From: a virus
Taxonomy: Duplodnaviria > Heunggongvirae > Uroviricota > Caudoviricetes
Length of the DNA: 64,000 nt
IMG/VR virus record: IMGVR_UViG_3300042295_001370
Location: 5,673 to 69,672 of that record
Strand: one strand, 5' to 3'
Positions 3,935-20,080 of the stretch are shown in pieces. Position 1 is the stretch's first letter; every line of letters begins with the position of its first letter. Below the pieces are notes generated by a model. It ran no database searches and was not told the origin of the DNA. It saw only the letters and a program-made list of their open reading frames with translations. Made by a program: the position numbers and the translations under genes.

Positions 3935-5911
3935 TTAAGATCCTTTGCGTGAAAGAGCAAGTATAAAGGGAGTCATAAATCCAAAGATGCTTTGATAAAA
4001 GCTGCGTCCATCAATAGCACCTCGTCTCTGATTTATGCGGAAACTGGGTCTGGCAGGAGGTTTCTCCCACACGAAGTTAAAAGTAGCTGACGATCCACCA
4101 CCACTTGTTGACGTTGCACTAATGGGATTTGTGGGCAAACTGCCAATTGTTGTGCTACCTGGCGCCGAAAGTAGATAGTATCCAGGAATAAGAATCGCAA
4201 CACTTGTAATAACACCACTGGACACACTCAAAACCTTAAGTGTTGTGGGCACAGCATAGGTGCTGTTAACGTTGGCTGGGGTAATGAAATTCAATGTATC
4301 CCCTACGTTATAGCTGCCTCCGCCATTGGCAATAGTCAATCCGCCAACTTGAAACGCTGGATTGGGTGTCACAGCCCCCACATAAAAGTCTCCGCTTTCG
4401 TCAGTTGTGGTATGGAATACACGTCCACCAGCTAGTGCAATAGTATATTTGTTGGGATCAGCGTAGCCACTGCCATCTTGACTGGGGCTGAGTTTGGCAT
4501 AATCCAAGCCAGCACCAGCATAGCTCATGGTATAGCCGCTGGCTTCAATCAAGGAGCCAAACTTGATCCTGGCTCGCAATTGCCGGCCAGCTATGGGCAA
4601 AGACTTCAAGCTAATAACTGAACAAGGCAAACCACCCGCTGTTACACCTTTTGATATTGTATAGTCAACAGTGGGCAGCAACGGTGTTGCAGTGTCTAAA
4701 AATTGCACTTCCAAGTCACTGAATTGATTTGGCAAAACATAAGTGCCACCCGTTGTGACAAAATCAGAACTGACACCATTGGTGGCCCAAGTTTGATTTA
4801 CAGCCACAGGGCTGTCAGTGGTTTCAAGATACCGGTGTCCTTGACTCCAAAGAGCATAATTGCCAAAACTGCAATTGCTGTTCAATGCAGTCACGTGACC
4901 ACCATCAAGGCACAGCAAGCCAAACTGGCAGAAGTTAACGAAAAAACTCACCAACTGCATGTAGCCTTTGCCAATGACTTTGACGCCGATACCACCAAGA
5001 TTGATTTGAGTAAATGCGTCAATAACAATGCTGTGAATCCTATTATTGGGTCCCAAAACACTGGGATCAATCAACACACCGCCACCACCTGGGTAAATCC
5101 CTGATCCAGTGTCTGGATCGCCACTAATGCTGGAACAGTTTTGTACATAGGGACTGACCAAGATGTCTGCACCTGGAGCAAAGCCAAAGGCAAATCCTGT
5201 TTGTCGAGTTGTAGAGATCAGTGCAGATGTATTCACTCCACTTGTGTTGGCATAACCTGCTGGAGTTATATCCAATGCTGATGGATTCAATCTATGATCT
5301 CTTACAGTAATGCCATACACATAACACTTGCTGTTCAAATAAAATACATCAGTAGTTGCGACTCTTGGTCGTATGGAAACAGCTCTAAGATTATCGCCAA
5401 TAATGCTGACACCTGGCGGAATTTCAATAGGACAGTCTTCAGTATAGTCACCAGCTGCTACTAATATAGCTGTGTGATCAGGTCGGAATGCACCTGTGGC
5501 AATTTGTCTAGCTGCTTCAGCACATGCAGCTTTCACAGTTCGCTTGGCGCTATACCAACTTTGTCCACTGTTGGTATCATTACCACTTTCTGCAACGTAA
5601 ATGCGATTTTTAACAATTGCATCAGCAATCTGTTGCAGGCTTTCTGCATTTAGCAGTTTCCAAACACTGCCTTCCCAAACATACATTTGTTTGTCTGTGG
5701 TTTTGTACCAAAGCTGTCCTTGTGTGGGACTTTGTGGAGGACTTTGGTCGGCAAAATTTTCCATGAGATGAACAAGATTTTCATTCAAATAAGTACCGTA
5801 ATTGGCAAAATTCTTACCAAATAGGATCAAACTGGAAACTGTGCTGTTATACTGTCCTGGCGGAATACTTGCCAGCGTAGTGCCATTGGTCTTTGTGATA
5901 TTTGTATTCAT
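3935..5911 (-). CDS. Tail fibre / tailspike with predicted beta-helix
   Basis: N-terminal virion-attachment-type segment (GKNFANYG..NENLVHLMENFA..GQLWY) then YVAESGND.NSG motif and pectin-lyase-like repeats. Confidence 0.7.
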   Translation of the reverse strand: MNTNITKTNGTTLASIPPGQYNSTVSSLILFGKNFANYGTYLNENLVHLMENFADQSPPQSPTQGQLWYKTTDKQMYVWEGSVWKLLNAESLQQIADAIVKNRIYVAESGNDTNSGQSWYSAKRTVKAACAEAARQIATGAFRPDHTAILVAAGDYTEDCPIEIPPGVSIIGDNLRAVSIRPRVATTDVFYLNSKCYVYGITVRDHRLNPSALDITPAGYANTSGVNTSALISTTRQTGFAFGFAPGADILVSPYVQNCSSISGDPDTGSGIYPGGGGVLIDPSVLGPNNRIHSIVIDAFTQINLGGIGVKVIGKGYMQLVSFFVNFCQFGLLCLDGGHVTALNSNCSFGNYALWSQGHRYLETTDSPVAVNQTWATNGVSSDFVTTGGTYVLPNQFSDLEVQFLDTATPLLPTVDYTISKGVTAGGLPCSVISLKSLPIAGRQLRARIKFGSLIEASGYTMSYAGAGLDYAKLSPSQDGSGYADPNKYTIALAGGRVFHTTTDESGDFYVGAVTPNPAFQVGGLTIANGGGSYNVGDTLNFITPANVNSTYAVPTTLKVLSVSSGVITSVAILIPGYYLLSAPGSTTIGSLPTNPISATSTSGGGSSATFNFVWEKPPARPSFRINQRRGAIDGRSFYQSIFGFMTPFILALSRKGS

Positions 5912-5919
5912 CTTGATAT

Positions 5920-7677
5920 TTACTGTGTTTCAGTTGGAGGTGTTTCAGCACCTGGAGCAACTTCAGGTGTTTCAAATCCCGGTGTCTCAAGCGGGGCTTC
6001 AGGAGGCATCTCAGGTCCACCCATACCAAAATCAGGCTCTGGTGAAGGGCGTATCCCTATTGATCCCAGTCCCACACCCCTGTCTTCAATGGGGCTGGTG
6101 CCAGTCTTGCCTTTGACTTTGTCGTTGTTTTCTTCTTTCCACATCCGCTCATTTTCCAGAATATCTTCTTCTGTCCATCCTAGATAACGCTTGAGCGCAT
6201 ATCTCTTGCTCATGTAAGCTCTTGCATCACTGTTCATAGCTGAACTGAAGAGGTTAACACGCTCAGTGTCAATGCTCATGTTGCGATATTGACTGAAACT
6301 TTGTGGAACGTTAAATGCCAACTCAAACAAACTGCTGTGTACCTCAATGCCACGGAACTTCAAAAACAATTTAAATTCCATATCCAATGTTGGCGCAAGA
6401 CTGTTCTGCAATCTTTGGCAATATTTGTTGAATCTATACTCTTGGATAAATGCTGTTCCCACTTTGCCATCGTTGTAAACTGCTGTGCCATCATCTGGTC
6501 CAGTGGGCAAATAGCTGCTGGGAATACCCAGCCCGCGCATCAACTTGTTGTTGAAGTATTTCAAGTCGTCAATAGTGCCCAAGTTTTCGCCAGCGTTCAA
6601 AGTGTCAATAGTTGTGCCGCGTTGTTCACTGTTGGTTGCAAGGAAGAAATCTTCTGTAATGCTTATGGGATTATAGGCGCTGTCAATAATACTTGAGCCA
6701 CCACCTGTGCGGTTTGGGAGTCGCCTTTGGTAAATTTCGTTTTTGACTCTTTCAACATACTGCATGGCACGTTGACCTTGCAGCTGACCCACGTCAATCT
6801 TAAACACTCTGCGCTCAGGTGCACGCACAATACGGTAAATGAGAATGCAGTCTTCCAAAAGGTCTTTTTGTTTGTAAGTTTTGTAAACTGCTTCAATGAT
6901 GCTGGTGCCAAAAGGCCAATATTGATCCAAGCCTTCACTTAAACTGAGATGCACCACGTGGTTGGCATCAATTGCCATGCTGTTGGCTGGATTGTAAAAT
7001 CTGCTGGTACGGCCGCCAGGTGTTGTGGGCTGTCCATAGTTGATGTTGCCTGCACCAGCTGCTGGGTTCGCACTACGAGGGTAACCTCCTGGGAAACTGT
7101 ATTGATCATGCACAAGAGGGTTGGTTGCCACTAGACTTTGTAAATTGAAATCCAAATCTCTAATCACATATTGTTCAATTTTTTTGCCTTGTGCCTCATT
7201 GACAATGATTTTTTCCACTTTGGCTGAATCTACCCACAACAGCTCATAGGTTTCTGGATCTCGGACGAAAAATTGATCACCGTATTTGACAGTATTACGG
7301 AATATTTTGAAGATTCGTTGATTCAGTTTATTGATGCTGCACCATTGTTGAAGTGCACTGGCCAAAAGTTCTGTTTCAGTTTCAGTAACATCACCTTTCC
7401 AAATAAATCGGAAAGGAATAGGCTCATCATCACTTTGGTTTTGTGTGCAGAACTCAGCAATAGTGTCCAAGCTGCGATTGATTTCACTATCTAAATCAGC
7501 TTGTTCATAAGCCACATAGCGTTCAACTCGGTTTGGAGCACCAGCATAGACTTCAGGCAAATAACTGCTGAATTTTGTAGTGGTTGCACCTTGACTGTTG
7601 TCTTTGTTGATTTCTGCTAGTCTTGCAGTGAGTCTAGCTTGACTCGGTACTGTTGTGAAATATTTTTTCCAAGCCAT
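5920..7677 (-). CDS. gp20: Portal vertex protein, T4 gp20-like
   Basis: Motifs IYRIVRAPERRVFKIDVG, EDFF, IDTL..GENLG.IDDLKYF..KL.RGL.IP.S. Confidence 0.95.
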   Translation of the reverse strand: MAWKKYFTTVPSQARLTARLAEINKDNSQGATTTKFSSYLPEVYAGAPNRVERYVAYEQADLDSEINRSLDTIAEFCTQNQSDDEPIPFRFIWKGDVTETETELLASALQQWCSINKLNQRIFKIFRNTVKYGDQFFVRDPETYELLWVDSAKVEKIIVNEAQGKKIEQYVIRDLDFNLQSLVATNPLVHDQYSFPGGYPRSANPAAGAGNINYGQPTTPGGRTSRFYNPANSMAIDANHVVHLSLSEGLDQYWPFGTSIIEAVYKTYKQKDLLEDCILIYRIVRAPERRVFKIDVGQLQGQRAMQYVERVKNEIYQRRLPNRTGGGSSIIDSAYNPISITEDFFLATNSEQRGTTIDTLNAGENLGTIDDLKYFNNKLMRGLGIPSSYLPTGPDDGTAVYNDGKVGTAFIQEYRFNKYCQRLQNSLAPTLDMEFKLFLKFRGIEVHSSLFELAFNVPQSFSQYRNMSIDTERVNLFSSAMNSDARAYMSKRYALKRYLGWTEEDILENERMWKEENNDKVKGKTGTSPIEDRGVGLGSIGIRPSPEPDFGMGGPEMPPEAPLETPGFETPEVAPGAETPPTETQ

Positions 7678-7742: not shown

Positions 7743-10067
7743 CTAGGCAAAGTCACCAATTATTCCAGCTGTGATACGTGCTTGTCTTGCTTGATCTTGG
7801 ATGTAGGGTGTTTGTGCTGCCACTGTGCTGTTCAAGGTAGTGACCATACCTAATAGTGCATCGTTTTGCGGTGCTATTGGTGGAGCAAGACTAGTCATAG
7901 TGGCTTGTGCTGCTACTCTACTTACAAGTGCAGCCATAGCAGAAACATATGACGTGCTGCTTGCTTGCATTTCAACAAGTGCAGTTGAATCTTGTAATAA
8001 ACCACCAGCATTGCCAGTTTGATCACCTGGCCTTGCTTCTGATGCACTTGCTGAACTTATAAGCATAGGTAGTGCAGCACCCAGACCACCTACAAGTGCC
8101 CCCACCGGCCCACCCATCAAGAAGCCGCCTGCTGCCCCACCTAATACGCCTAAGGCACCACTACCAAATGAGCCAAGGCCCAGCATGCTACCAAGTCCTG
8201 CGCCCGCCATCCCTCCTGCGAGTCCTCCTAAACCTCCTCCTAAAATGCCTCTACTTAACCCCGAACCTAGTAAGCGATTTCCTGTCATTCCTAACAACCC
8301 TCCTCTAGCAGCAAGATTACCAGCCCCGCCCATCATACCAGACATCATTCCTGTTGAGCCCAGCATTGAAGTCAAACCCAAGCCTCCTCCTCCCAGTAAC
8401 CGTGGTATTGCAGCTTTTAAAGCTGTACTTGCCAGCAATTTAGGCATCAATGCCACAGCAGCTCCTGTCATTAAGGCCGAAGCTGCTCCGGACATACCAC
8501 TGGCAGCCATTCCATAAAATGAGTTTGCTGCTCCTGCGCCTGCGCCAGTTGCTGCTGCCAAGGGTTCAAGAACTTTCGTAAACAAGCCCAACTGTTGTGT
8601 AGCTGCCCAGAGCGCTGCCTTGAAGTCACCAGTGATACGAGCAGTATCCATAGTCACTTTTTGCATGGCAGTAGTAGCTTGATCTAAGTTTCCACCTCTT
8701 CCGGTGAAGATATCAAGTATCCTCTGCATACCTCCTGGCTGCGCTTCAGCCGCCTTTGCCCGTGCTGCGTCTCCATATAATTCATCAGCTATGTCACCTG
8801 CTCCTGCGTACTTACTTCCCAGATACGCCTGTGTTACAAAATCATTTAAGCCCTGTCCTTGGCTAAAATTACGTTTTAAATTCCCAGCTCCTTCCATCAT
8901 GTCTAAGGTAGATCCTGATGTTAGCTGCCTAGACAATTGCTCCATTCCAGACATTGTCCCGCCTATGCTCATAAAGGCGCGCATTTGCTCGTCAGGAGGC
9001 ATAAGCCCATATTGCATGCCTGCTATGGCTCTTGTCAATTTAGGCCCTATGTCCATTGCCAATTGGCCAGTGTTTTTCTTAAATGTTGCTGCCGCTTCAG
9101 GATTGGTCTGTTCCAATTGCCTAACCCGAAGTCTAATAAATCTATCTTGATCTAGCTCTTTTTGTCTAGCCTCTAATGTTTTTCTATCTTTGCCAGTTAA
9201 AATAGTAAGTGCTGTAAGCTCACGCAAATATTGTGCAGTGCCTTGTTCGTTCATTGCGCTTGCTTGCTGGAATGAAAGCCCACCTTCGACTAAGCTGTTC
9301 ACAAAGAAACTAACGGACTCAGCCTGTTGTTGAGACGTCTGGCCGTACATACCAAACTCCCTAGTAGCTGTTTGTGTTGCCCGAATCAATTTGGCAAAAT
9401 TTTCTTCACCCACTCCACCAATTGTAGTACCAAATTGCCCAACAAGTCCTTGAAACTCTTCCAGCTTCAAACCTGTACGACCAACCATTTCCTGCATCTT
9501 TTCAAGACTGCCGCCAAAAGTAACACCGGTGTTTGCCATGGCCTGAAAAGCTGGCATTCCGCTAGCAAAAATTCCCACACCAGCAGCAACAACAGCCACC
9601 ACTTTGTTCAAGCCAGCAAATGCTGTGCTTAACCCAGTTGCACTACCATCTGCCTTACGGAAATTATAGCTTAAGCTGTTGATACCACTTGTGACACCTT
9701 CATACAGTCTACTGCTGTCAAATCGACTCATTTTGTCTAAGCTTGAGCGTAAATCATCAACACTGCGTTTGTAATTGCCTTTGATTTCCTGTTCATAGCC
9801 TTGCATGCGTTGTTCATGACGCAGTTGATTGACCTGAGCCCTTTTAGCTTTCTCCGCACTATTTTGAAGTTCTGTCAAGCCATCTTTGGCATCATCAATA
9901 GCATCTTCAAATGAGCGAATAGTTGCAGCATCTAAGTTGAACTTTTCTTTAGCAATAGCAGCCAAAATACTGTTGTTTGACGCCATCTTGTCACGCAACT
10001 CTCCGAGAGTGCGCTCCTGGGCCCAATTCTTGCTGATATCTTTCAATTCACTAGCTGTAAAACTCAT
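7743..10067 (-). CDS. Tape measure-like protein
   Basis: 774-aa Ala/Gly-rich helical protein with hydrophobic GLG-rich segments, next to the gp26-like chaperone gene. Confidence 0.65.
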   Translation of the reverse strand: MSFTASELKDISKNWAQERTLGELRDKMASNNSILAAIAKEKFNLDAATIRSFEDAIDDAKDGLTELQNSAEKAKRAQVNQLRHEQRMQGYEQEIKGNYKRSVDDLRSSLDKMSRFDSSRLYEGVTSGINSLSYNFRKADGSATGLSTAFAGLNKVVAVVAAGVGIFASGMPAFQAMANTGVTFGGSLEKMQEMVGRTGLKLEEFQGLVGQFGTTIGGVGEENFAKLIRATQTATREFGMYGQTSQQQAESVSFFVNSLVEGGLSFQQASAMNEQGTAQYLRELTALTILTGKDRKTLEARQKELDQDRFIRLRVRQLEQTNPEAAATFKKNTGQLAMDIGPKLTRAIAGMQYGLMPPDEQMRAFMSIGGTMSGMEQLSRQLTSGSTLDMMEGAGNLKRNFSQGQGLNDFVTQAYLGSKYAGAGDIADELYGDAARAKAAEAQPGGMQRILDIFTGRGGNLDQATTAMQKVTMDTARITGDFKAALWAATQQLGLFTKVLEPLAAATGAGAGAANSFYGMAASGMSGAASALMTGAAVALMPKLLASTALKAAIPRLLGGGGLGLTSMLGSTGMMSGMMGGAGNLAARGGLLGMTGNRLLGSGLSRGILGGGLGGLAGGMAGAGLGSMLGLGSFGSGALGVLGGAAGGFLMGGPVGALVGGLGAALPMLISSASASEARPGDQTGNAGGLLQDSTALVEMQASSTSYVSAMAALVSRVAAQATMTSLAPPIAPQNDALLGMVTTLNSTVAAQTPYIQDQARQARITAGIIGDFA

Positions 10068-10153: not shown

Positions 10154-10987
10154 ATGAGTAATCCATTGAGTCAATACTTTCACACACCCAAGGCCTATGC
10201 ACAATTGCCAACACGAGGCAAATTTTATCCTAGTGATTTCCTTGAGACTTCAGCCAATGGCGAAATGGCAGTGTATCCGTTGACTGCTATTGATCAAATC
10301 ATGTTGAAAACTCCTGATGCGCTGTTGAATGGCGATGCATTGTTGAGTGTTTTCCGAAACTGTGTTCCTGGAGTCAAAGATCCCAAGAAGCTTGTGGAGC
10401 CTGACATCAACACCCTACTTGTTGCCATAAGAATTGCCAGTGCAGGGTCAACTATGGAAATAGACACCACATGTCCCAGTTGTGGAAAAGAGCACAACTT
10501 TGGTATAGACCTCTCTGCATTTATCGAAACACAAACTTATGTTGAAGGCCCCACCTATATTGAAATAGATGGAGCACTCCAAGTTTTCCTGCGTCCTTAC
10601 AACTTTGAGCAGAGAAATCTACAACTGTTGAATGAAGTGGAACAAGCCAGAAGCATCAAAGTGTTACAAGAAACAGACACAACTGATGCAGAAAAGATCA
10701 GTAGTGTGACCAAACAAGTGAATCACATGGCCAAACGCACATTGGACATCATGGCCATGAGCATAACTGAAATCAAAATAATCAGTAGTGGTGAACTGGT
10801 CACCAATCAAGAATACATTCAAGAGTTTGTGAAAGGTATTCCCACAACCAGTGCCAACGCCATCATCGACAAGTTGAAAGAGCTCAACAAAACTGGTATT
10901 GATACCGAAACCTCTTTTCAATGCGACGGTTGCTCACACACTTGGAGCCAGTCAATTGACTTTGATCCCACAAGTTTTTTCGACTAA
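10154..10987 (+). CDS. gp26: Baseplate hub assembly / tail chaperone, T4 gp26-like
   Basis: NPLSQYF..PK.Y..LPT.GKFY, P.T..DQI.LKTPDALLNG, IRIAS.G and CPSC motifs. Confidence 0.8.
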   Translation: MSNPLSQYFHTPKAYAQLPTRGKFYPSDFLETSANGEMAVYPLTAIDQIMLKTPDALLNGDALLSVFRNCVPGVKDPKKLVEPDINTLLVAIRIASAGSTMEIDTTCPSCGKEHNFGIDLSAFIETQTYVEGPTYIEIDGALQVFLRPYNFEQRNLQLLNEVEQARSIKVLQETDTTDAEKISSVTKQVNHMAKRTLDIMAMSITEIKIISSGELVTNQEYIQEFVKGIPTTSANAIIDKLKELNKTGIDTETSFQCDGCSHTWSQSIDFDPTSFFD

Positions 10988-11035
10988 AGCTTCTCAGGGG
11001 TGATCATGTAGCCATCACCCAAGTACTGAGAAGCT
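10975..11035 (+). promoter_or_regulatory. Programmed -1 ribosomal frameshift signal
   Basis: Slippery heptamer T TTT TTC (10975-10981), 6-nt spacer, stem AGCTTCTCAG/CTGAGAAGCT enclosing GGGTGAT/ATCACCC. Confidence 0.8.
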
Positions 11036-11220
11036 GCGAAAAAGAAGTGGAAATGATTGAAAGCGATATTGCCAACCTAGTGTATTACATGAACGGAGGA
11101 CTCACCTACAGTGAAGCTTGGCGTCTCACCACTTCACAGATGAAATCTTTGAGTGGAACTATTTCCAAACACTATGAGATGCAAGCCGAAGCTTATAGGA
11201 AGGCTCAATCAAAGAAGTGA
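10981..11220 (+). CDS. gp51-like chaperone extension in the -1 frame (not in ORF track)
   Basis: 79-codon open frame RLKLLRG...LVYYMNGGLTYSEAWRLT...KK*; first ATG is 24 codons in. Confidence 0.7.
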   Translation, partial: RLKLLRGDHVAITQVLRSCEKEVEMIESDIANLVYYMNGGLTYSEAWRLTTSQMKSLSGTISKHYEMQAEAYRKAQSKK

Positions 11221-11329: not shown

Positions 11330-11700
11330 TAGGGAGGAAGTCACACTTCTCCCCACCGGGAGGAGAAGTGTGAAAAGGCTTTCGTATAGGGCTTCGGCCT
11401 GCCTGTCTCGTCTTGGGAATTGCTTCCAGCTGGCGGAGAACCTATTTCCAGCGTTCCTGACTCTCTTCTCGGACTTATGCTCATGGAGCTGCCTTCTCGG
11501 TTATGTGCTCATCACACACGCAGGGAATTCAGTCAGACAGGCTGTTGACTGAACCCCTTCCAGCGTCACGGGACAGTGAGAGGCTGGATCCTTTTTGTTC
11601 ACTTTTGTGGCGAGGGCATAGAACCGTAAACCCTCATACGCAATTTTCCCCGGCCTTCGCGCCTGGTAGATACGGATGGACACTACACCATCATATAAAG
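11330..11700. ncRNA. Putative structured non-coding RNA, unknown family
   Basis: GC-rich intergenic stretch with hairpins TCACACTTCTCC/GGAGAAGTGTGA, GGC-TTCG-GCC, TTCAGTCA/TGACTGAA, TCCAGC/GCTGGA, GAGGG/CCCTC; no credible ORF. Confidence 0.5.
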
Positions 11701-14511: not shown

Positions 14512-15336
14512 CTATAGTAGTTGGTTAGGTTGAGTTTTGCAATTAGGACCATGCCATCTGATATAGTTCGCTAAACCAAAGATATTCCCGCAATGTTCAC
14601 AAGTTTGTTTTGTTGCTTCGAATATCTGTGCTCTCTTCTTCAAAATTTCTTCAGAGACTTTTTGGCCAGACCTTACTGCGGACATTCGGACTCCAAAGCC
14701 TGCAGGTTTTTTCTTGCCTCGATTTGCTAAACTTATCTTTTCTTTGGTCTCAGCAGACAGACTTCGTCCCCGAGATTTTTGTGAGCGTGCAGCTCGCATC
14801 TCTTCTGCTTTTGGGCCATAAATTTCTTCATAGGACCTGCCTTTTTTAGCTTCGCTCATTTTAGATCTAGCTTCATCAGAATGCTTTTTGCCATATAACG
14901 GATGATTCTCTCCTGACCTGTCGATAAGAGATAATGCATCTTTTATGTTCTTGATTGTTTCTGCACTTCTTTTTTTGCCACAATTGTTAACACTTGCTTT
15001 CATTCTTGATTCATCAGAGACTATCTTCCCAACTGCCCCATCCCCGCCATCAGTTCGATTGTGTAATATACCTGTGTTATTATCCAGGCGTCCCCACCAG
15101 AGTATCAGCCTTCTTTCGAGCGCAACAGCACCAAGATTAGTTAATCCTTGTTCAAGGACAACAATCCTCCATGCTTCTTTTGGTACAGGTAGAGTTCCGT
15201 GGTTTTCTTTGTAACGTATGCCGGTCCCTTTTCCAATATAATAAGGGGTTCCTGCAGGACCATTGTTGGATGTTGTTTTTCTTAAGTAGGCATACACATA
15301 AAACCCAAAGGGTTTGATATTACGATAAATAGACAT
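14512..15336 (-). CDS. GIY-YIG homing endonuclease (Seg-like) with NUMOD3 repeats
   Basis: FYVYAYLR..PYYIGKG, LHNRTDGGDG, HSDEARSKMSEAKKG; start MSIYRN after AAGGGAG. Confidence 0.9.
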   Translation of the reverse strand: MSIYRNIKPFGFYVYAYLRKTTSNNGPAGTPYYIGKGTGIRYKENHGTLPVPKEAWRIVVLEQGLTNLGAVALERRLILWWGRLDNNTGILHNRTDGGDGAVGKIVSDESRMKASVNNCGKKRSAETIKNIKDALSLIDRSGENHPLYGKKHSDEARSKMSEAKKGRSYEEIYGPKAEEMRAARSQKSRGRSLSAETKEKISLANRGKKKPAGFGVRMSAVRSGQKVSEEILKKRAQIFEATKQTCEHCGNIFGLANYIRWHGPNCKTQPNQLL

Positions 15337-15421
15337 AGCTGTTGCTCCCTTAAAGCGATAGAGCCGGTGGACCTGCCAGGGTCGTGACCGGCATATATCT
15401 ATATTTATGGAGTACAGATAA

Positions 15422-17203
15422 TTACTCACCGCTTTCATAGCTGAAACGAGTGAAACCTAACTCTTTGATAACATACAAAACTCGATCGCAGCGACTTGTT
15501 AGCTCTTCTCTATGTGAGATCAACAAAATGTTCTTGTTCCGATCTCTGCTCATAGCCTTAAGCGTCTCTAGAGATCTTTCAAGTCCTGTGCTGTCAAGTC
15601 CCACATCAAGGATCTCATCAACAGCCATGAAGTTGATGCTGGTGTTCATGTTTTCAAAAATGTCTCGGAATGCCCAGCTGAGTGCCAAACAAACTCTTGT
15701 GCGTTCACCTCGGCTGAGACTGTCAAAGTCAAAGTCTACGCCCATATGCATGATCTCAACTCCCAAGTCGTTGCTGAATTTAACTTGGTGTGGCAACATC
15801 AATCCAGCTAGATATTCACCCAGTCTGTGATTCAAGTAGCTGAGGTTTTGATCAATAATACGCTTTCGGATGAAGCTGTCTTTGTTTGTTAGCAGCTTCA
15901 AGAGAAACTCTTGATGGTCTTTGAGTTGGCTGAGTTCATTTAGTGAATCATAAGTGACTTCTTGCAGTGTGTCATTTAAATTACCCACTTGGGCTTGATA
16001 AGGATTGGTTTCAAGCTTAAGTTTGTCCAGTTCACCACTAAGAAGTGTGAGACTGTTTCGATGCTCATATGCCTCATCAATGCTTTTGTAAAATGTTTGG
16101 TTTAGCGATACAGCACTAGACAGACCCATGAGCTCATCCAGTTCTTGTGTCAAACTCAGGCATTCCTGTTCCAGTGTTTGAATGCTGCTGTCCAGTTTGG
16201 TAATTTTGTGCTCAAGGTCGTCCAGCAGATGTGTTTGTTTCTCGTCATGAATCTTTTGACCACACATTGCGCAGTTGTGGTCTTGAATTTGACTATACTG
16301 AGTTAACCAGTTGTTTTGTTGCGCCTTCAGCTGTGTTCCATGCTGTGTTTTTGTTTGGCTTTGGCTGCGCACATTCTTCAATGCTGTTTGAAGTTCACGA
16401 TACACAAGATTGTCTTTGTGACTTTGAATTTCCTGCTCAACATCAAGATGACTCAAAGCATCTAGTGCATTTTCCAAGTCTTGAATTTTGTTCTGATGTT
16501 GAGTATCCCACTGTTGGGTTTTTTGATTCAAACTTTCAATAGTGCTCAAAATACGTGTATTGCTGTTTTTGATAGTATGTATTTTGAACTCTTCTTGTTC
16601 AATAGTTTGTTTGGTTGTTTGAATAAGCTTTTTGAGGTTTTCTGCCTTCTGAGACAGTAATGTAATTCCCAACAGCTCTTCAATTATTTCTCGCTGTTTT
16701 CCAGCACCCATGCTCAAAAATGGCTCAGTATAGGTGTTCAAAGCCACAATGTGTTTGAACATGGTGTGGCTGATGCCCAATACCTTCTCAATCTCTTTCT
16801 GAGTATCTTTGTTTTCGCCTTGAGCTTCGTCTGCACTTTTGTTTTCATTTACTGATTCATCATTTACAACATAGCGGAAAAAACTAGGGGCACGGCCACG
16901 TTCAATTTTGTAGCTGTTGCCGTGGGCTTCAAACTCAATACTCACCACCATGTTCTTTTTGTTGATGCTGTTGATGAGATTGTTTTTCTTGATGTTAGTA
17001 AGAGCTTGACCATACAGGGCATAACAAATGGCTGAAATCAGCGTCGATTTGCCAACACCATTCCGGTTGCCGTTGCCGCCCAAGTCTAGATTCTCGCCCA
17101 ATACAAGAGTCAAGCCAGGTTGTGTGAGAGTAACTGATTGTGTAACAGCACCCACACTCATGAAGTTTTTGATTGTGACGTTTTTGAGGATGATCAAGTT
17201 CAA
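15422..17203 (-). CDS. gp46: Recombination endonuclease ATPase subunit (gp46/SbcC/Rad50)
   Basis: Walker A NGVGKST, coiled coil with CAMC zinc hook, LSRGE signature, Walker B AVDEILD. Confidence 0.95.
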   Translation of the reverse strand: MNLIILKNVTIKNFMSVGAVTQSVTLTQPGLTLVLGENLDLGGNGNRNGVGKSTLISAICYALYGQALTNIKKNNLINSINKKNMVVSIEFEAHGNSYKIERGRAPSFFRYVVNDESVNENKSADEAQGENKDTQKEIEKVLGISHTMFKHIVALNTYTEPFLSMGAGKQREIIEELLGITLLSQKAENLKKLIQTTKQTIEQEEFKIHTIKNSNTRILSTIESLNQKTQQWDTQHQNKIQDLENALDALSHLDVEQEIQSHKDNLVYRELQTALKNVRSQSQTKTQHGTQLKAQQNNWLTQYSQIQDHNCAMCGQKIHDEKQTHLLDDLEHKITKLDSSIQTLEQECLSLTQELDELMGLSSAVSLNQTFYKSIDEAYEHRNSLTLLSGELDKLKLETNPYQAQVGNLNDTLQEVTYDSLNELSQLKDHQEFLLKLLTNKDSFIRKRIIDQNLSYLNHRLGEYLAGLMLPHQVKFSNDLGVEIMHMGVDFDFDSLSRGERTRVCLALSWAFRDIFENMNTSINFMAVDEILDVGLDSTGLERSLETLKAMSRDRNKNILLISHREELTSRCDRVLYVIKELGFTRFSYESGE

Positions 17204-18231
17204 ATACTCTGATAGATTTCAATCAAGCGTTGTTTGTTCATTGTAGTGCTTTCAATACTATTCAAATGTGACACCACAATTGAGTCAACGCTTTCAAAAT
17301 TGATTTCACTATCATCAAGAACAGTGTCATCTCCATCACTTCTGCCATGAATAAAACTCACATCCAAGGCAGCTAGCTGAGTTTCAAATAACTCTCTAAT
17401 GAAGGCAAGGTCTTCATAAGTTAAGTCAGCATCTACTGTTATCCGTGCGAAAGTTTTGTTGTCTATCAAGCCGGTAGGATCCTGAAGTGCCTCTGTAAGG
17501 TTATACGTGCGATACTTGGGTGCACTAAGCCATTTTTCAAATATGGGATCAGTTCCAGGAGTCCAGATCATCAACCCTCTATCATCGTCTCCCGCATCTG
17601 CAAAGTTGTGAGGAAAGGCATTGCCAATATAACAAATGTTGCCCTTTCGCTGCCTTTTGTGAAAATGCCCACTGAACACCAATTTTTGATTTTGAAAGTG
17701 TTCACTGTTCAAGCCGCCATGATCGGGCATTTCCACCATGGCATTCATCCGGAACTTGGCAATTTCAGCATGACAAAACAAATAAGGCTGTTTGATTTTT
17801 TGAATCAACTTATACTCATCACCCACCAACCAAGGAACAAAACAATAGTCTTTGACTGTGGTGATTTTGTCAATTAGGTGAATATTTGAAAAATCCTGTG
17901 CATAGGGAATACTGTGCAGCTCTAGAGTATCTCGAAAATAGAGATCATGGTTGCCCAAGAGCATTATCACATTGTCAAAATTGTTGTTTAGCAGTTTCAT
18001 GCCATTGTGGCTGTAATTGAGTGTGCTGATGTTCACACTGTTGCGGTTGTGACTCCAGTCGCCCAAAAACAAGAGTGTTTTGATTTTCAGCTCTTGTGCT
18101 CGTTTGACCACAAACTCCAAAAACTCAGTACACCAAGTGTTGTGCTGTTTGGAGTTGTTCCGCATGCCAAAATGCACATCAGTTATGGCAATTACTTTTG
18201 AAAAATCAACATTGTCTAGATTGATAGTCAT
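17200..18231 (-). CDS. gp47: Recombination endonuclease nuclease subunit (gp47/SbcD/Mre11)
   Basis: Metallophosphoesterase motifs TDVHFG, LGDW, GNHD, SGHFH. Confidence 0.95.
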   Translation of the reverse strand: MTINLDNVDFSKVIAITDVHFGMRNNSKQHNTWCTEFLEFVVKRAQELKIKTLLFLGDWSHNRNSVNISTLNYSHNGMKLLNNNFDNVIMLLGNHDLYFRDTLELHSIPYAQDFSNIHLIDKITTVKDYCFVPWLVGDEYKLIQKIKQPYLFCHAEIAKFRMNAMVEMPDHGGLNSEHFQNQKLVFSGHFHKRQRKGNICYIGNAFPHNFADAGDDDRGLMIWTPGTDPIFEKWLSAPKYRTYNLTEALQDPTGLIDNKTFARITVDADLTYEDLAFIRELFETQLAALDVSFIHGRSDGDDTVLDDSEINFESVDSIVVSHLNSIESTTMNKQRLIEIYQSI

Positions 18232-18358: not shown

Positions 18359-20080
18359 GTGAATTTGGCAGAATTGAAAGAACTTTGGTTGAACAAGGAG
18401 ATTACACCAAATAGGTTGACAAAGTTGTTGCCTATACACAAAGAAGAGCTAGACAAATTATTTCCTTGTGAAGGCCCAATTGCAGCTAAATTTTATGCAT
18501 ACGTTCATAACACTAATGCAGAAAACAGTTGGTGTGAACAGAGTGGTAAGTTCAGGACTTTCAATAATATGGTTCTAGGGTTCAGAAAATTCTGTGGTAA
18601 TCAATCTCAATGCTCCTGTAATCGTGAATATCAGGAAAGCGTTCGACACAGCCGCACTAGAGATGAAATAAATCATATTCACGAAAAACGTAAAAATACC
18701 AACCTTCAAAAGTATGGTTTTGAGTATGCAAGTCAACATGACAAGGTCAAAGCCAAAGCTGAGACCACATGTTTTGAAAAGTATGGCGCAAAAGCTCCAA
18801 CCTTAAATCCTGTTGTTTTAGACAAAGCACAAAAAACGATCCAGGAAAATTGGGGAGTAAACTTTCCTCAGCAACATCCTGATATAAGAACCAAAACTAT
18901 AGAGGTGTTTCAAAACACTTATGGAGCACCTGTTCCTGCTCAAAACCTGGAGGTGTTAGTTAAAACCAAAAAAACCAACCTCTCAAAATATGGTGTTGTG
19001 GCCCCGTTTTTGACAACAGAGCATAGGGAGACCAATAGGAAAACTTTTCGGCAAAAATCTTGGGATTCCTATATTACAAATAGGACTGATTACACTCCGT
19101 TATTCACTCAAGAAGAATTTTTGGACTCACATCGTTATTCTGAACATTCGTTTGTTTGCCAAAAATGCCATAACCAATTCAGTGTTGCCTTGAAAAGAGA
19201 ATCTGATTTGCGTTGTTTTGCTTGTTATCCAAGAAAAGAAAGTTGGGGAGAAACAAAGATCAAACAATGGTTGTGGGATAATAACATATCTTTTGAGCAA
19301 TGGAATAGGCAAGTTATCAAGCCATTGGAGATTGACTTTTATCTTCCAGATTTAAATGTGGGTATTGAGTTTAATGGCATCTTTTATCATTCAGATTGCC
19401 AAATAGGAGACAAAAAATATCATCAAAATAAATGGAAACAAGCTCTTGAAAAAGGTGTAAGGCTTGTTCAAATTTGGGAACATGAGATGGTGCAAAAACC
19501 CAATATTATATTTGACAGATTGTCACACGTAGTGGGTTTGAAAAAAACAATTGTTGGTGCACGTAAATGCAACATTACAGTTGTGGATTTTGGAACAGCT
19601 AAAACATTTATTCAGAACTCACACTTGCAGGGCAACATACCAACCAAACATATTTGGGGTTTGGAACACAACGGGTCGCTTGTTGCACTTGCTAGCTTTG
19701 TCAAAACTAGGTATAGCAAAGGGAGTGATTATGAGCTGGCCCGTTATTGTATTTTGCCTGGGTATCATGTGCCAGGAGGGCTTAGCAAGCTTTTGAATCA
19801 TGCACATCAGGAGTTGGGATTCAAAAGCTTGGTGTCCTACAGTAACTTGAACTGGGGACTGGGAAATGGTTACGAAAAAACAGGCTTTGAGTTAAGTCAT
19901 ATCAGTCCACCCAATTATTGGTATTGGAAAAATATAAATGACGTTCAGAGCCGACTTAAATTTCAAAAACACAAAATACAAGGCTTAGCTGCGGGCAATA
20001 CAGAGCAAGAAATTGCCAAAAATTTGGGCTACAATCGTTTTTATGATGCAGGCAACGCAGTGTGGATCAAAAAATACTAG
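18359..20080 (+). CDS. Hef-like homing endonuclease: KYG repeats, PD-(D/E)xK-type domain, C-terminal GNAT-like domain
   Basis: Repeated KYG..Q motifs, zinc motifs, EIDFYLPDLNVGIEFNG, then ARKC..ELARYC..GGLSKLL..VSYS; TATAAATA at 18325-18332. Confidence 0.75.
   Translation: MNLAELKELWLNKEITPNRLTKLLPIHKEELDKLFPCEGPIAAKFYAYVHNTNAENSWCEQSGKFRTFNNMVLGFRKFCGNQSQCSCNREYQESVRHSRTRDEINHIHEKRKNTNLQKYGFEYASQHDKVKAKAETTCFEKYGAKAPTLNPVVLDKAQKTIQENWGVNFPQQHPDIRTKTIEVFQNTYGAPVPAQNLEVLVKTKKTNLSKYGVVAPFLTTEHRETNRKTFRQKSWDSYITNRTDYTPLFTQEEFLDSHRYSEHSFVCQKCHNQFSVALKRESDLRCFACYPRKESWGETKIKQWLWDNNISFEQWNRQVIKPLEIDFYLPDLNVGIEFNGIFYHSDCQIGDKKYHQNKWKQALEKGVRLVQIWEHEMVQKPNIIFDRLSHVVGLKKTIVGARKCNITVVDFGTAKTFIQNSHLQGNIPTKHIWGLEHNGSLVALASFVKTRYSKGSDYELARYCILPGYHVPGGLSKLLNHAHQELGFKSLVSYSNLNWGLGNGYEKTGFELSHISPPNYWYWKNINDVQSRLKFQKHKIQGLAAGNTEQEIAKNLGYNRFYDAGNAVWIKKY

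Follow-up and report, generated by a model that had tools for sequence, protein, structure and literature searches.

A conserved candidate -1 frameshift signal at the end of a gp26-like gene in giant phages

We analyzed a 64,000-nucleotide (nt) stretch of DNA (hereafter, the window) from an uncultured giant phage (Caudoviricetes) in the IMG/VR database, in which a gene related to T4 gene 26 ends in a candidate -1 frameshift site; the record that contains the window is 133.7 kb long and was judged ~30% complete. From this gene, located at positions 10154-10987, a -1 slip very probably yields a transframe fusion in addition to the gp26-like protein, and the T4 counterpart of that fusion appears to be gp51. 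We infer the slippage, its ribosomal nature, its efficiency and the chaperone role of the products from sequence. The feature that exceeds chance is the conservation of an in-register slippery heptamer in 88 of 88 related loci. We regard the gene as a well-supported case of tail-chaperone frameshifting and not as a new principle, since frameshifting of this kind has been known since 2004 and the gp26/gp51 assignment dates from 2022.

Candidate frameshift site in the window

The 3' end of the gp26-like open reading frame (ORF) reads AGT TTT TTC GAC TAA in the 0 frame. The codons TTT (10976) and TTC (10979) are in the frame of this ORF, and the T_TTT_TTC heptamer at 10975-10981 has the X_XXY_YYZ register that a first-pass annotation, made from the sequence alone, had assigned to it. 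The same annotation described a 10-base pair (bp) stem around a 7-bp stem beginning 6 nt past the heptamer, and we located both stems within 10988-11035. It also expected the -1 frame to stay open for 79 codons and to produce a fusion of ~355 amino acids (aa). Translation to 11220 gave an extension of 79 residues (RLKLLRGD...AQSKK) and a predicted fusion of 276 + 79 = 355 aa, with the junction ...PTSFFRLK. The earliest start codons of the -1 frame in the window are a GTG at 11047 (codon 23) and an ATG at 11053.

Conservation of the heptamer and the -1 frame

The 1067-nt region had no match in the phage collection at the DNA level, and relatives were identified by protein-level searches. We examined 12 related loci at first and then 88 (73 distinct sequences), with 30-91% protein identity; the larger set was retrieved with a six-sequence alignment. 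The nearest isolates, at 30-37% identity, are the giant phages PA5oct, Phosso, Atu_ph07, PBECO4/Rak2-like and PHA46.

All 88 loci have a slippery heptamer in register at the homologous spot (T_TTT_TTC in 63, A_AAT_TTT in 23 and T_TTT_TTT in 2), which is the conservation in related giant phages that the first-pass annotation had proposed as a check. The -1 frame is open for 70-93 codons in every locus with sufficient downstream sequence, and the contig of one locus (L033) ends after 51 codons. In all loci, the 0-frame stop is found 9-39 nt beyond the point where the heptamer's codons begin. We ruled out that the T run reflects a sequencing error, because the frame break is kept in 88 loci from independent samples.

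In 54 of 54 distinct sequences, T is the last base of the codon preceding TTT TTY; this codon is represented by seven types for seven amino acids, and the background of T at third codon positions is 35%. Members of the A_AAT_TTT clade have a 0 frame that closes with NFS and the stop codon, and the FF pair is retained only by transframe reading. Between the loci L084 and L048, a single T-to-C change leaves the -1 frame protein unaltered and replaces F with S in the 0 frame.

The alignment of the extension across 67 relatives is near-gapless and contains the motifs R-h-x-L-L, PEEI, YMxGG and AWxxSxxDR, with conservation beginning at codon 1. Among 72 distinct sequences, the earliest ATG, GTG or TTG of the -1 frame is at least at codon 10 in 54 and at least at codon 31 in 33; PA5oct has none, and ~15 have a start codon within the first six codons of the extension. 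An in-register heptamer, a stable RNA structure beginning ~5-9 nt past the heptamer and a selected -1 frame without an early start of its own are the sequence-level elements of a programmed ribosomal frameshifting (PRF) cassette, and all of them were found here. The linkage of the gp26-like ORF to the -1 frame, as claimed in the first-pass annotation, is therefore upheld by the retained heptamer, the conservation of the -1 frame from codon 1, the hairpin, the paucity of early starts and the in-frame fusions described below.

A long form of the 355-aa type is absent from the annotation of every record inspected, in line with the earlier expectation that gene callers would overlook the fusion. 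Stand-alone ORF calls of 40-76 aa cover the extension in Phosso, PBECO4, PHA46 and Atu_ph07. In the RefSeq record of PA5oct, no feature is annotated across the 73-codon -1 extension (L008:3856-4064), and in that of Atu_ph07, the last 40 extension codons alone are annotated, as a hypothetical protein (L010:3933-4055).

RNA hairpin after the heptamer

The outer stem of the candidate stimulatory hairpin in the window pairs AGCTTCTCAG (10988-10997) with CTGAGAAGCT (11026-11035) over 10 bp, and the inner stem pairs GGGTGAT (10998-11004) with ATCACCC (11014-11020) over 7 bp. The 86-nt segment folds at -28.9 kcal/mol, with z = -3.98 relative to 200 shuffles. An intrinsic terminator was considered and ruled out, as no T run follows the hairpin.

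Based on the 73 distinct sequences, a contiguous helix of at least 9 bp beginning 3-9 nt past the heptamer is present in 47%, compared with ~6.5% of control positions (2190 positions inside the same genes). The 85 nt past the heptamer have a mean folding energy of -18.9 kcal/mol, whereas segments from the sequences' own genes average -13.4 kcal/mol (difference of 5.5; Mann-Whitney p = 3e-17), and this energy falls in the lowest tenth for 45% of the sequences.

The arms of the hairpin vary by clade (AGCTTCTCAG/CTGAGAAGCT, GGCTCTTG/CAAGAGCC, AGGTCCTTAAT/ATTAAGGACCT and TTCCTAGGTGG/CTATCTAGGAA), and the 3' arm lies 36-82 nt downstream, in extension codons that differ among clades. Covariation of the stem in relatives, another check that had been suggested, was found in part: there are compensatory pairs within clades, but they are few (4 of 10 pairs in one comparison and 3 of 25 in another). 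RNAalifold predicted no structure for ten sequences of the GGCTCTTG/CAAGAGCC type, because their 3' arms are not positionally aligned; we therefore relied on the per-sequence helix and energy statistics with own-gene controls.

Protein family and predicted structure

The gp26-like 0-frame protein is a member of PF12322 (T4_baseplate; E = 5.5e-18, 65.9 bits with a cut-off of 24.5, residues 53-276) and also matches phrog_150, a baseplate hub family, with E = 4.5e-20. It contains two CxxC pairs (C107/C110 and C257/C260) and a terminal FF motif. Residues C110, C257, C260, F275 and F276 are invariant in an alignment of nine sequences that includes T4 gp26, and C107 is nearly invariant among 67 relatives.

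AlphaFold2 produced a model of the gp26-like protein with a predicted local distance difference test (pLDDT) score of 88.8. For the 79-aa extension, the model has a pLDDT score of 91.5 and alpha-helices at residues 9-37, 43-47 and 51-78, and we interpret the modeled extension as a conserved helical domain at the C-terminus of the long form. The extension of the window on its own matched no Pfam, PHROG or NCBIfam family. Searches of the PDB returned no structure at E ≤ 0.001 for the fold of the extension or, using Foldseek, for the gp26-like body, and a wide VIA-align search returned generic helical hairpins only (Z 7-8).

Relation to T4 gp26 and gp51

T4 encodes gp26 and gp51 as separate genes, as the first-pass annotation had stated; the two genes are divergent neighbors, not tandem, and all seven T4-like genomes inspected have them side by side. 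The whole PF12322 profile is matched by both T4 proteins (gp26 with 215.6 bits at residues 1-206, gp51 with 177.5 bits at residues 1-201), which are therefore paralogs, with gp51 having ~48 additional C-terminal residues beyond the gp26-like body. There is one PF12322 gene in each of PA5oct, Phosso, Atu_ph07, PBECO4 and the window's record, compared with two in T4.

From these comparisons, gp51 appears to correspond to the whole fusion and not to the downstream ORF. In a MAFFT alignment, the gp51 segment VFKLLVNPDEIF...MIPAERGFVLKLIEK falls across the transframe junction and the extension. Using hhalign, we aligned the transframe profile to a nine-member gp51 family with a probability of 84% and P = 7e-6 (window residues 15-346, gp51 residues 6-249); the tails alone aligned with P = 7.4e-5. 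A tail hidden Markov model (HMM) matched the C-terminal ends of all nine gp51 proteins weakly, with 3-12 bits. Homology of the transframe long form to the gp51 family through the tail is thus probable on sequence grounds. The link of the frameshift pair to T4 gp26 and gp51 in the first-pass annotation agrees with the PF12322 matches of both proteins and with this alignment through the junction. Its description of the extension itself as gp51-like held in part: the 79 aa alone match no family, and it is the fusion as a whole that has the gp51 architecture.

A genome search with phrog_634 (gp51) found this family in T4 only and not in the window's record or four giant-phage genomes. A word-indexed protein search with gp51 tails returned three close T4-like proteins only. 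We also observed that a newer Pfam family, PF28602, covers the C-terminal part of gp51 in relatives of the T4 protein (P0002, P0007 and P0011-P0013).

Natural in-frame fusions

A profile search with the extension against 1.84 billion representatives identified 781 proteins at E ≤ 0.001, most of which are ORF calls of 55-98 aa. Among the best 150 matches, ~15 are longer, at 319-351 aa, and carry the domain C-terminally. We scanned ten of the long matches, and in all ten, PF12322 is followed in frame by the extension domain. The junction in these fusions is x-F-R-x-K-L, which contains one Phe and lacks a T run; in-frame fusions are therefore not the result of homopolymer errors.

In both of the genomic contexts that we fetched, a short PF12322 paralog lies just upstream of the in-frame long gene. 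These two loci from uncultured relatives (L096:51-2051 and L099:11-1247) encode one-frame long forms of 336 and 340 aa, respectively, each directly preceded by the short paralog. The short and long forms thus appear, as judged from gene content, to occur in three layouts: one frameshift gene, tandem genes and the divergent genes of T4.

The upstream paralog in L096 (329 aa) lacks the CxxC pairs and ends in ...GSNFLPDNQ, with an in-register T_TTT_TTA; as the next gene is in the same frame, a -1 slip would not join the two. Right after this tandem pair, L096:2097-3227 encodes a protein of 376 aa that has membrane-like segments at its N-terminus and a long helical region in its center and that could be a short tape-measure-like or hub protein.

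Proposed mechanism and alternative explanations

Based on the signals described above, we propose that most ribosomes would read to the TAA at 10985 and produce the 277-aa gp26-like protein. A fraction of ribosomes would pause at the hairpin with two tRNA-Phe on UUU UUC, slip back one base on U_UUU_UUC so that the tRNAs re-pair on UUU UUU, and continue in the -1 frame to 11220. The 355-aa product would share the N-terminal body of the short form and carry the 79-aa helical domain in addition. T4 gp26 would be the counterpart of the short form and T4 gp51 that of the long form; both would act on the tape measure or hub at tail initiation in the manner of lambda G/GT, with the extra domain of the long form serving as an adaptor and neither form kept in the virion.

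Several points weigh against this interpretation. The T_TTT_TTC heptamer is common in the AT-rich window (25 copies observed vs 15.6 expected), and the case for frameshifting therefore rests on the comparison with relatives. The classic heptamers of high efficiency in bacteria do not include U_UUU_UUC. Conservation of the 5' arm of the hairpin could partly stem from the conserved R-x-x-L-L codons that it overlaps, and termination-reinitiation could yield a separate small protein in the ~15 of 72 relatives with a start codon near the beginning of the extension. Evidence for the gp51 relationship is uneven: phrog_634 matched one of 67 extensions (E = 0.002), the window's not being the one matched, and hhalign of the extension profile against the single T4 gp51 was not significant (probability 0.4%). 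Neither structural model showed fold likeness to solved tail chaperones in the PDB and VIA-align searches.

The identical fusion protein would also arise if RNA polymerase, and not the ribosome, slipped, with an extra U added in the T run to join the frames. A homopolymer of six T is present at the site (seven in two relatives), and the preceding base, which is always T, lengthens the run. However, 23 of the 88 loci have only five T and yet carry the canonical A_AAT_TTT in register. Efficient slippage of bacterial polymerases is known from longer runs than five or six T. The hairpin 5-7 nt downstream is a classic ribosomal stimulator with no role in transcript slippage, and the authors of the PRFect paper take the 2022 work on T4-like phages to concern two separate genes, not slippage (PMC10885494). 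We consider transcriptional slippage quite improbable.

Independent expression of the downstream frame as a small gene, through its own start or through termination-reinitiation, would make the heptamer a by-product of Phe-Phe codons. The GTG and ATG in the window, an ATG that overlaps the stop in a few relatives, the stand-alone ORF calls in four isolates and the mostly short database matches to the extension are consistent with such a gene. However, translation beginning at codon 23 or 25 would cut into the first long helix, removing about one-third of it together with the conserved LL...PEEI part. Neither codon is preceded by a Shine-Dalgarno-like motif in the window, which bears on the independent initiation near 11053 that the first-pass annotation had named, together with a lack of conservation in relatives, as a finding that would speak against its own proposal. 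In addition, 54 of 72 relatives have no start in the first nine codons, and both the in-frame fusions and T4 gp51 place the domain on the C-terminus of a PF12322 body. Phe-Phe coding alone is insufficient to explain why T precedes the Phe codons in every distinct sequence, whatever the amino acid. A separate gene is, in our judgment, even less probable than slippage of the polymerase.

The least probable explanation is that the long form alone matters, either because the shift is very efficient or because it repairs an inherited frame break, with the 277-aa protein a functionless by-product. The 0-frame product of the A_AAT_TTT clade loses the otherwise invariant second Phe, and the comparison of L084 with L048 points to selection on the -1 reading at the junction, both of which would fit this explanation. 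Against it, short (gp26) and long (gp51) genes are both kept in seven T4-like genomes, a short paralog stands ahead of the in-frame long gene in both L096 and L099, and the 0-frame stop is retained close to the heptamer in all loci. Ribosomal -1 frameshifting that produces both forms is the explanation that we favor.

Genomic context

The frameshift gene adjoins, in divergent orientation, a gene for a 774-aa protein, beyond which lies the portal gene (Table 1). Based on protein-language-model features, the 774-aa protein is nearest to tape measure clusters (score 0.93), and its identification as a tape measure protein is a lead only. In PA5oct, its homolog carries the annotation of a virion structural protein, with detection by mass spectrometry (MS). 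Four of five isolates (PA5oct, Phosso, PBECO4 and PHA46) share this arrangement, in which the gene is divergent from an adjacent gene for a large structural protein and the portal gene comes next. The first-pass annotation mentioned adjacency to the tape measure gene for the lambda chaperones; the gene here lies next to a putative tape measure gene, but the two genes are divergent and the frameshift gene is not upstream. We identified no tube or hub protein in the window as a defined partner.

Table 1. Positions of the frameshift gene, its signals and two neighboring genes in the window
Feature	Position	Strand	Remarks
gp26-like 0-frame gene (short form; putative hub-assembly/tail chaperone)	10154-10987	+	277 aa
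Slippery heptamer T_TTT_TTC	10975-10981	+	X_XXY_YYZ register with the ORF starting at 10154, read directly
Spacer GACTAA	10982-10987	+	6 nt; last 0-frame codon and 0-frame stop TAA (10985-10987)
-1 frame extension	10981-11220	+	79 codons, then TGA at 11218-11220 (translation)
Candidate stimulatory hairpin	10988-11035	+	10-bp outer and 7-bp inner stem, 9-nt loop, 5-nt 3' bulge
Putative tape measure protein gene, divergent neighbor	7743-10067	-	774 aa; no Pfam or PHROG match
Portal gene	5920-7677		beyond 7743-10067

Other features were observed elsewhere in the window. Just downstream of the frameshift gene, 11330-11700 is a long non-coding stretch that is richer in GC. The region at 522-2390, upstream of the portal gene, encodes two proteins of ~310 aa with weak tail-fiber PHROG matches, and 3935-5911 encodes a 658-aa protein with strong tail-fiber and baseplate-wedge PHROG matches. 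SbcC-like (15422-17203) and SbcD-like (17200-18231) nuclease genes are flanked by homing-endonuclease-like genes at 14512-15438 and 18359-20080, based on PHROG matches.

Function and significance

Leiman et al. 2010 (PMC3004832) count T4 gp26 and gp51 among the hub assembly chaperones and report gp51 to be absent from particles. In one GenBank record, gp51 bears the name “tape measure protein assembly chaperone.” In PA5oct, the homolog of the gp26-like protein has no electrospray ionization tandem MS (ESI-MS/MS) note, unlike its neighbors. By analogy, a tail-chaperone function of both forms is likely.

The gp26 and gp51 proteins have been cited as T4-like tail assembly chaperones with reference to Vladimirov, Gautam and Davidson (Virology 2022, 566:9-15, PMID 34826709), and the equivalence of gp26/gp51 to G/GT is a published proposal. 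Two papers cite the same work for short and long chaperone genes in T4-like phages and for poly-T slip signals. According to the PRFect paper, some T4-like phages have a short tail-chaperone gene and a longer fused gene in place of frameshifting (PMC10885494). No account of frameshifting in these giant-phage genes came up in our literature search, with the coverage of the topic in Vladimirov et al. 2022 not established.

We tentatively suggest, at somewhat less than even odds, that a single frameshifting gene is the rule, so far undescribed, in a large clade of giant phages (PA5oct, Rak2/PBECO4-like phages, Atu_ph07, Phosso and hundreds of uncultured relatives) and that the additional domain of the long form is a new adaptor module without a solved relative. 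The annotation of a core tail-assembly gene would be corrected accordingly; at least 88 related loci carry the signal as well. Giant phages would also come under the general requirement of long-tailed phages for both a short and a long tail chaperone, a need that would be met in three ways: by frameshifting, by tandem genes and by the divergent genes 26 and 51 of T4. If this is true, the three layouts offer a natural comparison of how the ratio of short to long chaperone is set, and PA5oct, PBECO4 and Atu_ph07 are cultivable systems in which to seek the binding partner of the extra domain.

Comparison with known systems

The closest comparison is with T4 gp26 (208 aa) and gp51 (249 aa), both of which belong, like the window protein, to the PF12322 family. 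The short form of the window ends just past the FF pair, as gp26 does (FFELL and stop), and the predicted long form aligns through the junction to the C-terminus of gp51. T4 differs in having two paralogous genes without a slippery site, in which FF is encoded by TTC TTT, whereas the window has one gene and a predicted frameshift. The window body is also ~70 aa longer, owing to a helical insert, and the extension is ~78 aa long compared with ~48 aa in gp51.

In-frame gp51-like proteins of uncultured phages (P0023, P0038, P0044, P0045 and others) have the same two domains in the same order, with the extension matching the profile of the window's clade at E values of 1e-13 to 1e-20. They differ in being encoded in a single frame without a slippery run, and their short form comes from a separate tandem gene.

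Frameshifting by -1 in tail assembly chaperone genes was reportedly shown to be conserved by Xu, Hendrix and Duda in 2004 (Mol Cell 16:11), for lambda gpG/gpGT and also for P2 E/E+E'. The window gene resembles lambda G/GT in that two products with a common N-terminus would arise by slippage into the -1 frame close to where the first ORF ends, as predicted here from sequence. It is likewise a tail-assembly gene beside a tape measure gene (here putative), its long form adds a small domain, and gene callers usually miss the frameshift product. In contrast to lambda, the window protein has no sequence or fold likeness to gpG-type proteins detectable with Pfam, PHROGs, Foldseek or VIA-align, and the gene is divergent from the putative tape measure gene, where that of lambda is directly upstream on the same strand. 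A strong hairpin past the site also sets the window apart, as does the heptamer, which is G_GGA_AAG in lambda and U_UUU_UUC in the window.

Outside phages, E. coli dnaX (tau/gamma) uses a -1 slip on a heptamer with a stem-loop to make two products that differ in their C-termini and function in one assembly; dnaX also uses an upstream Shine-Dalgarno-like stimulator. The likeness to the window gene lies in one gene, a -1 heptamer slip with a stem-loop and two products, as predicted here. The two differ in that the shift truncates the protein in dnaX and would extend it in the window, and the protein families are unrelated.

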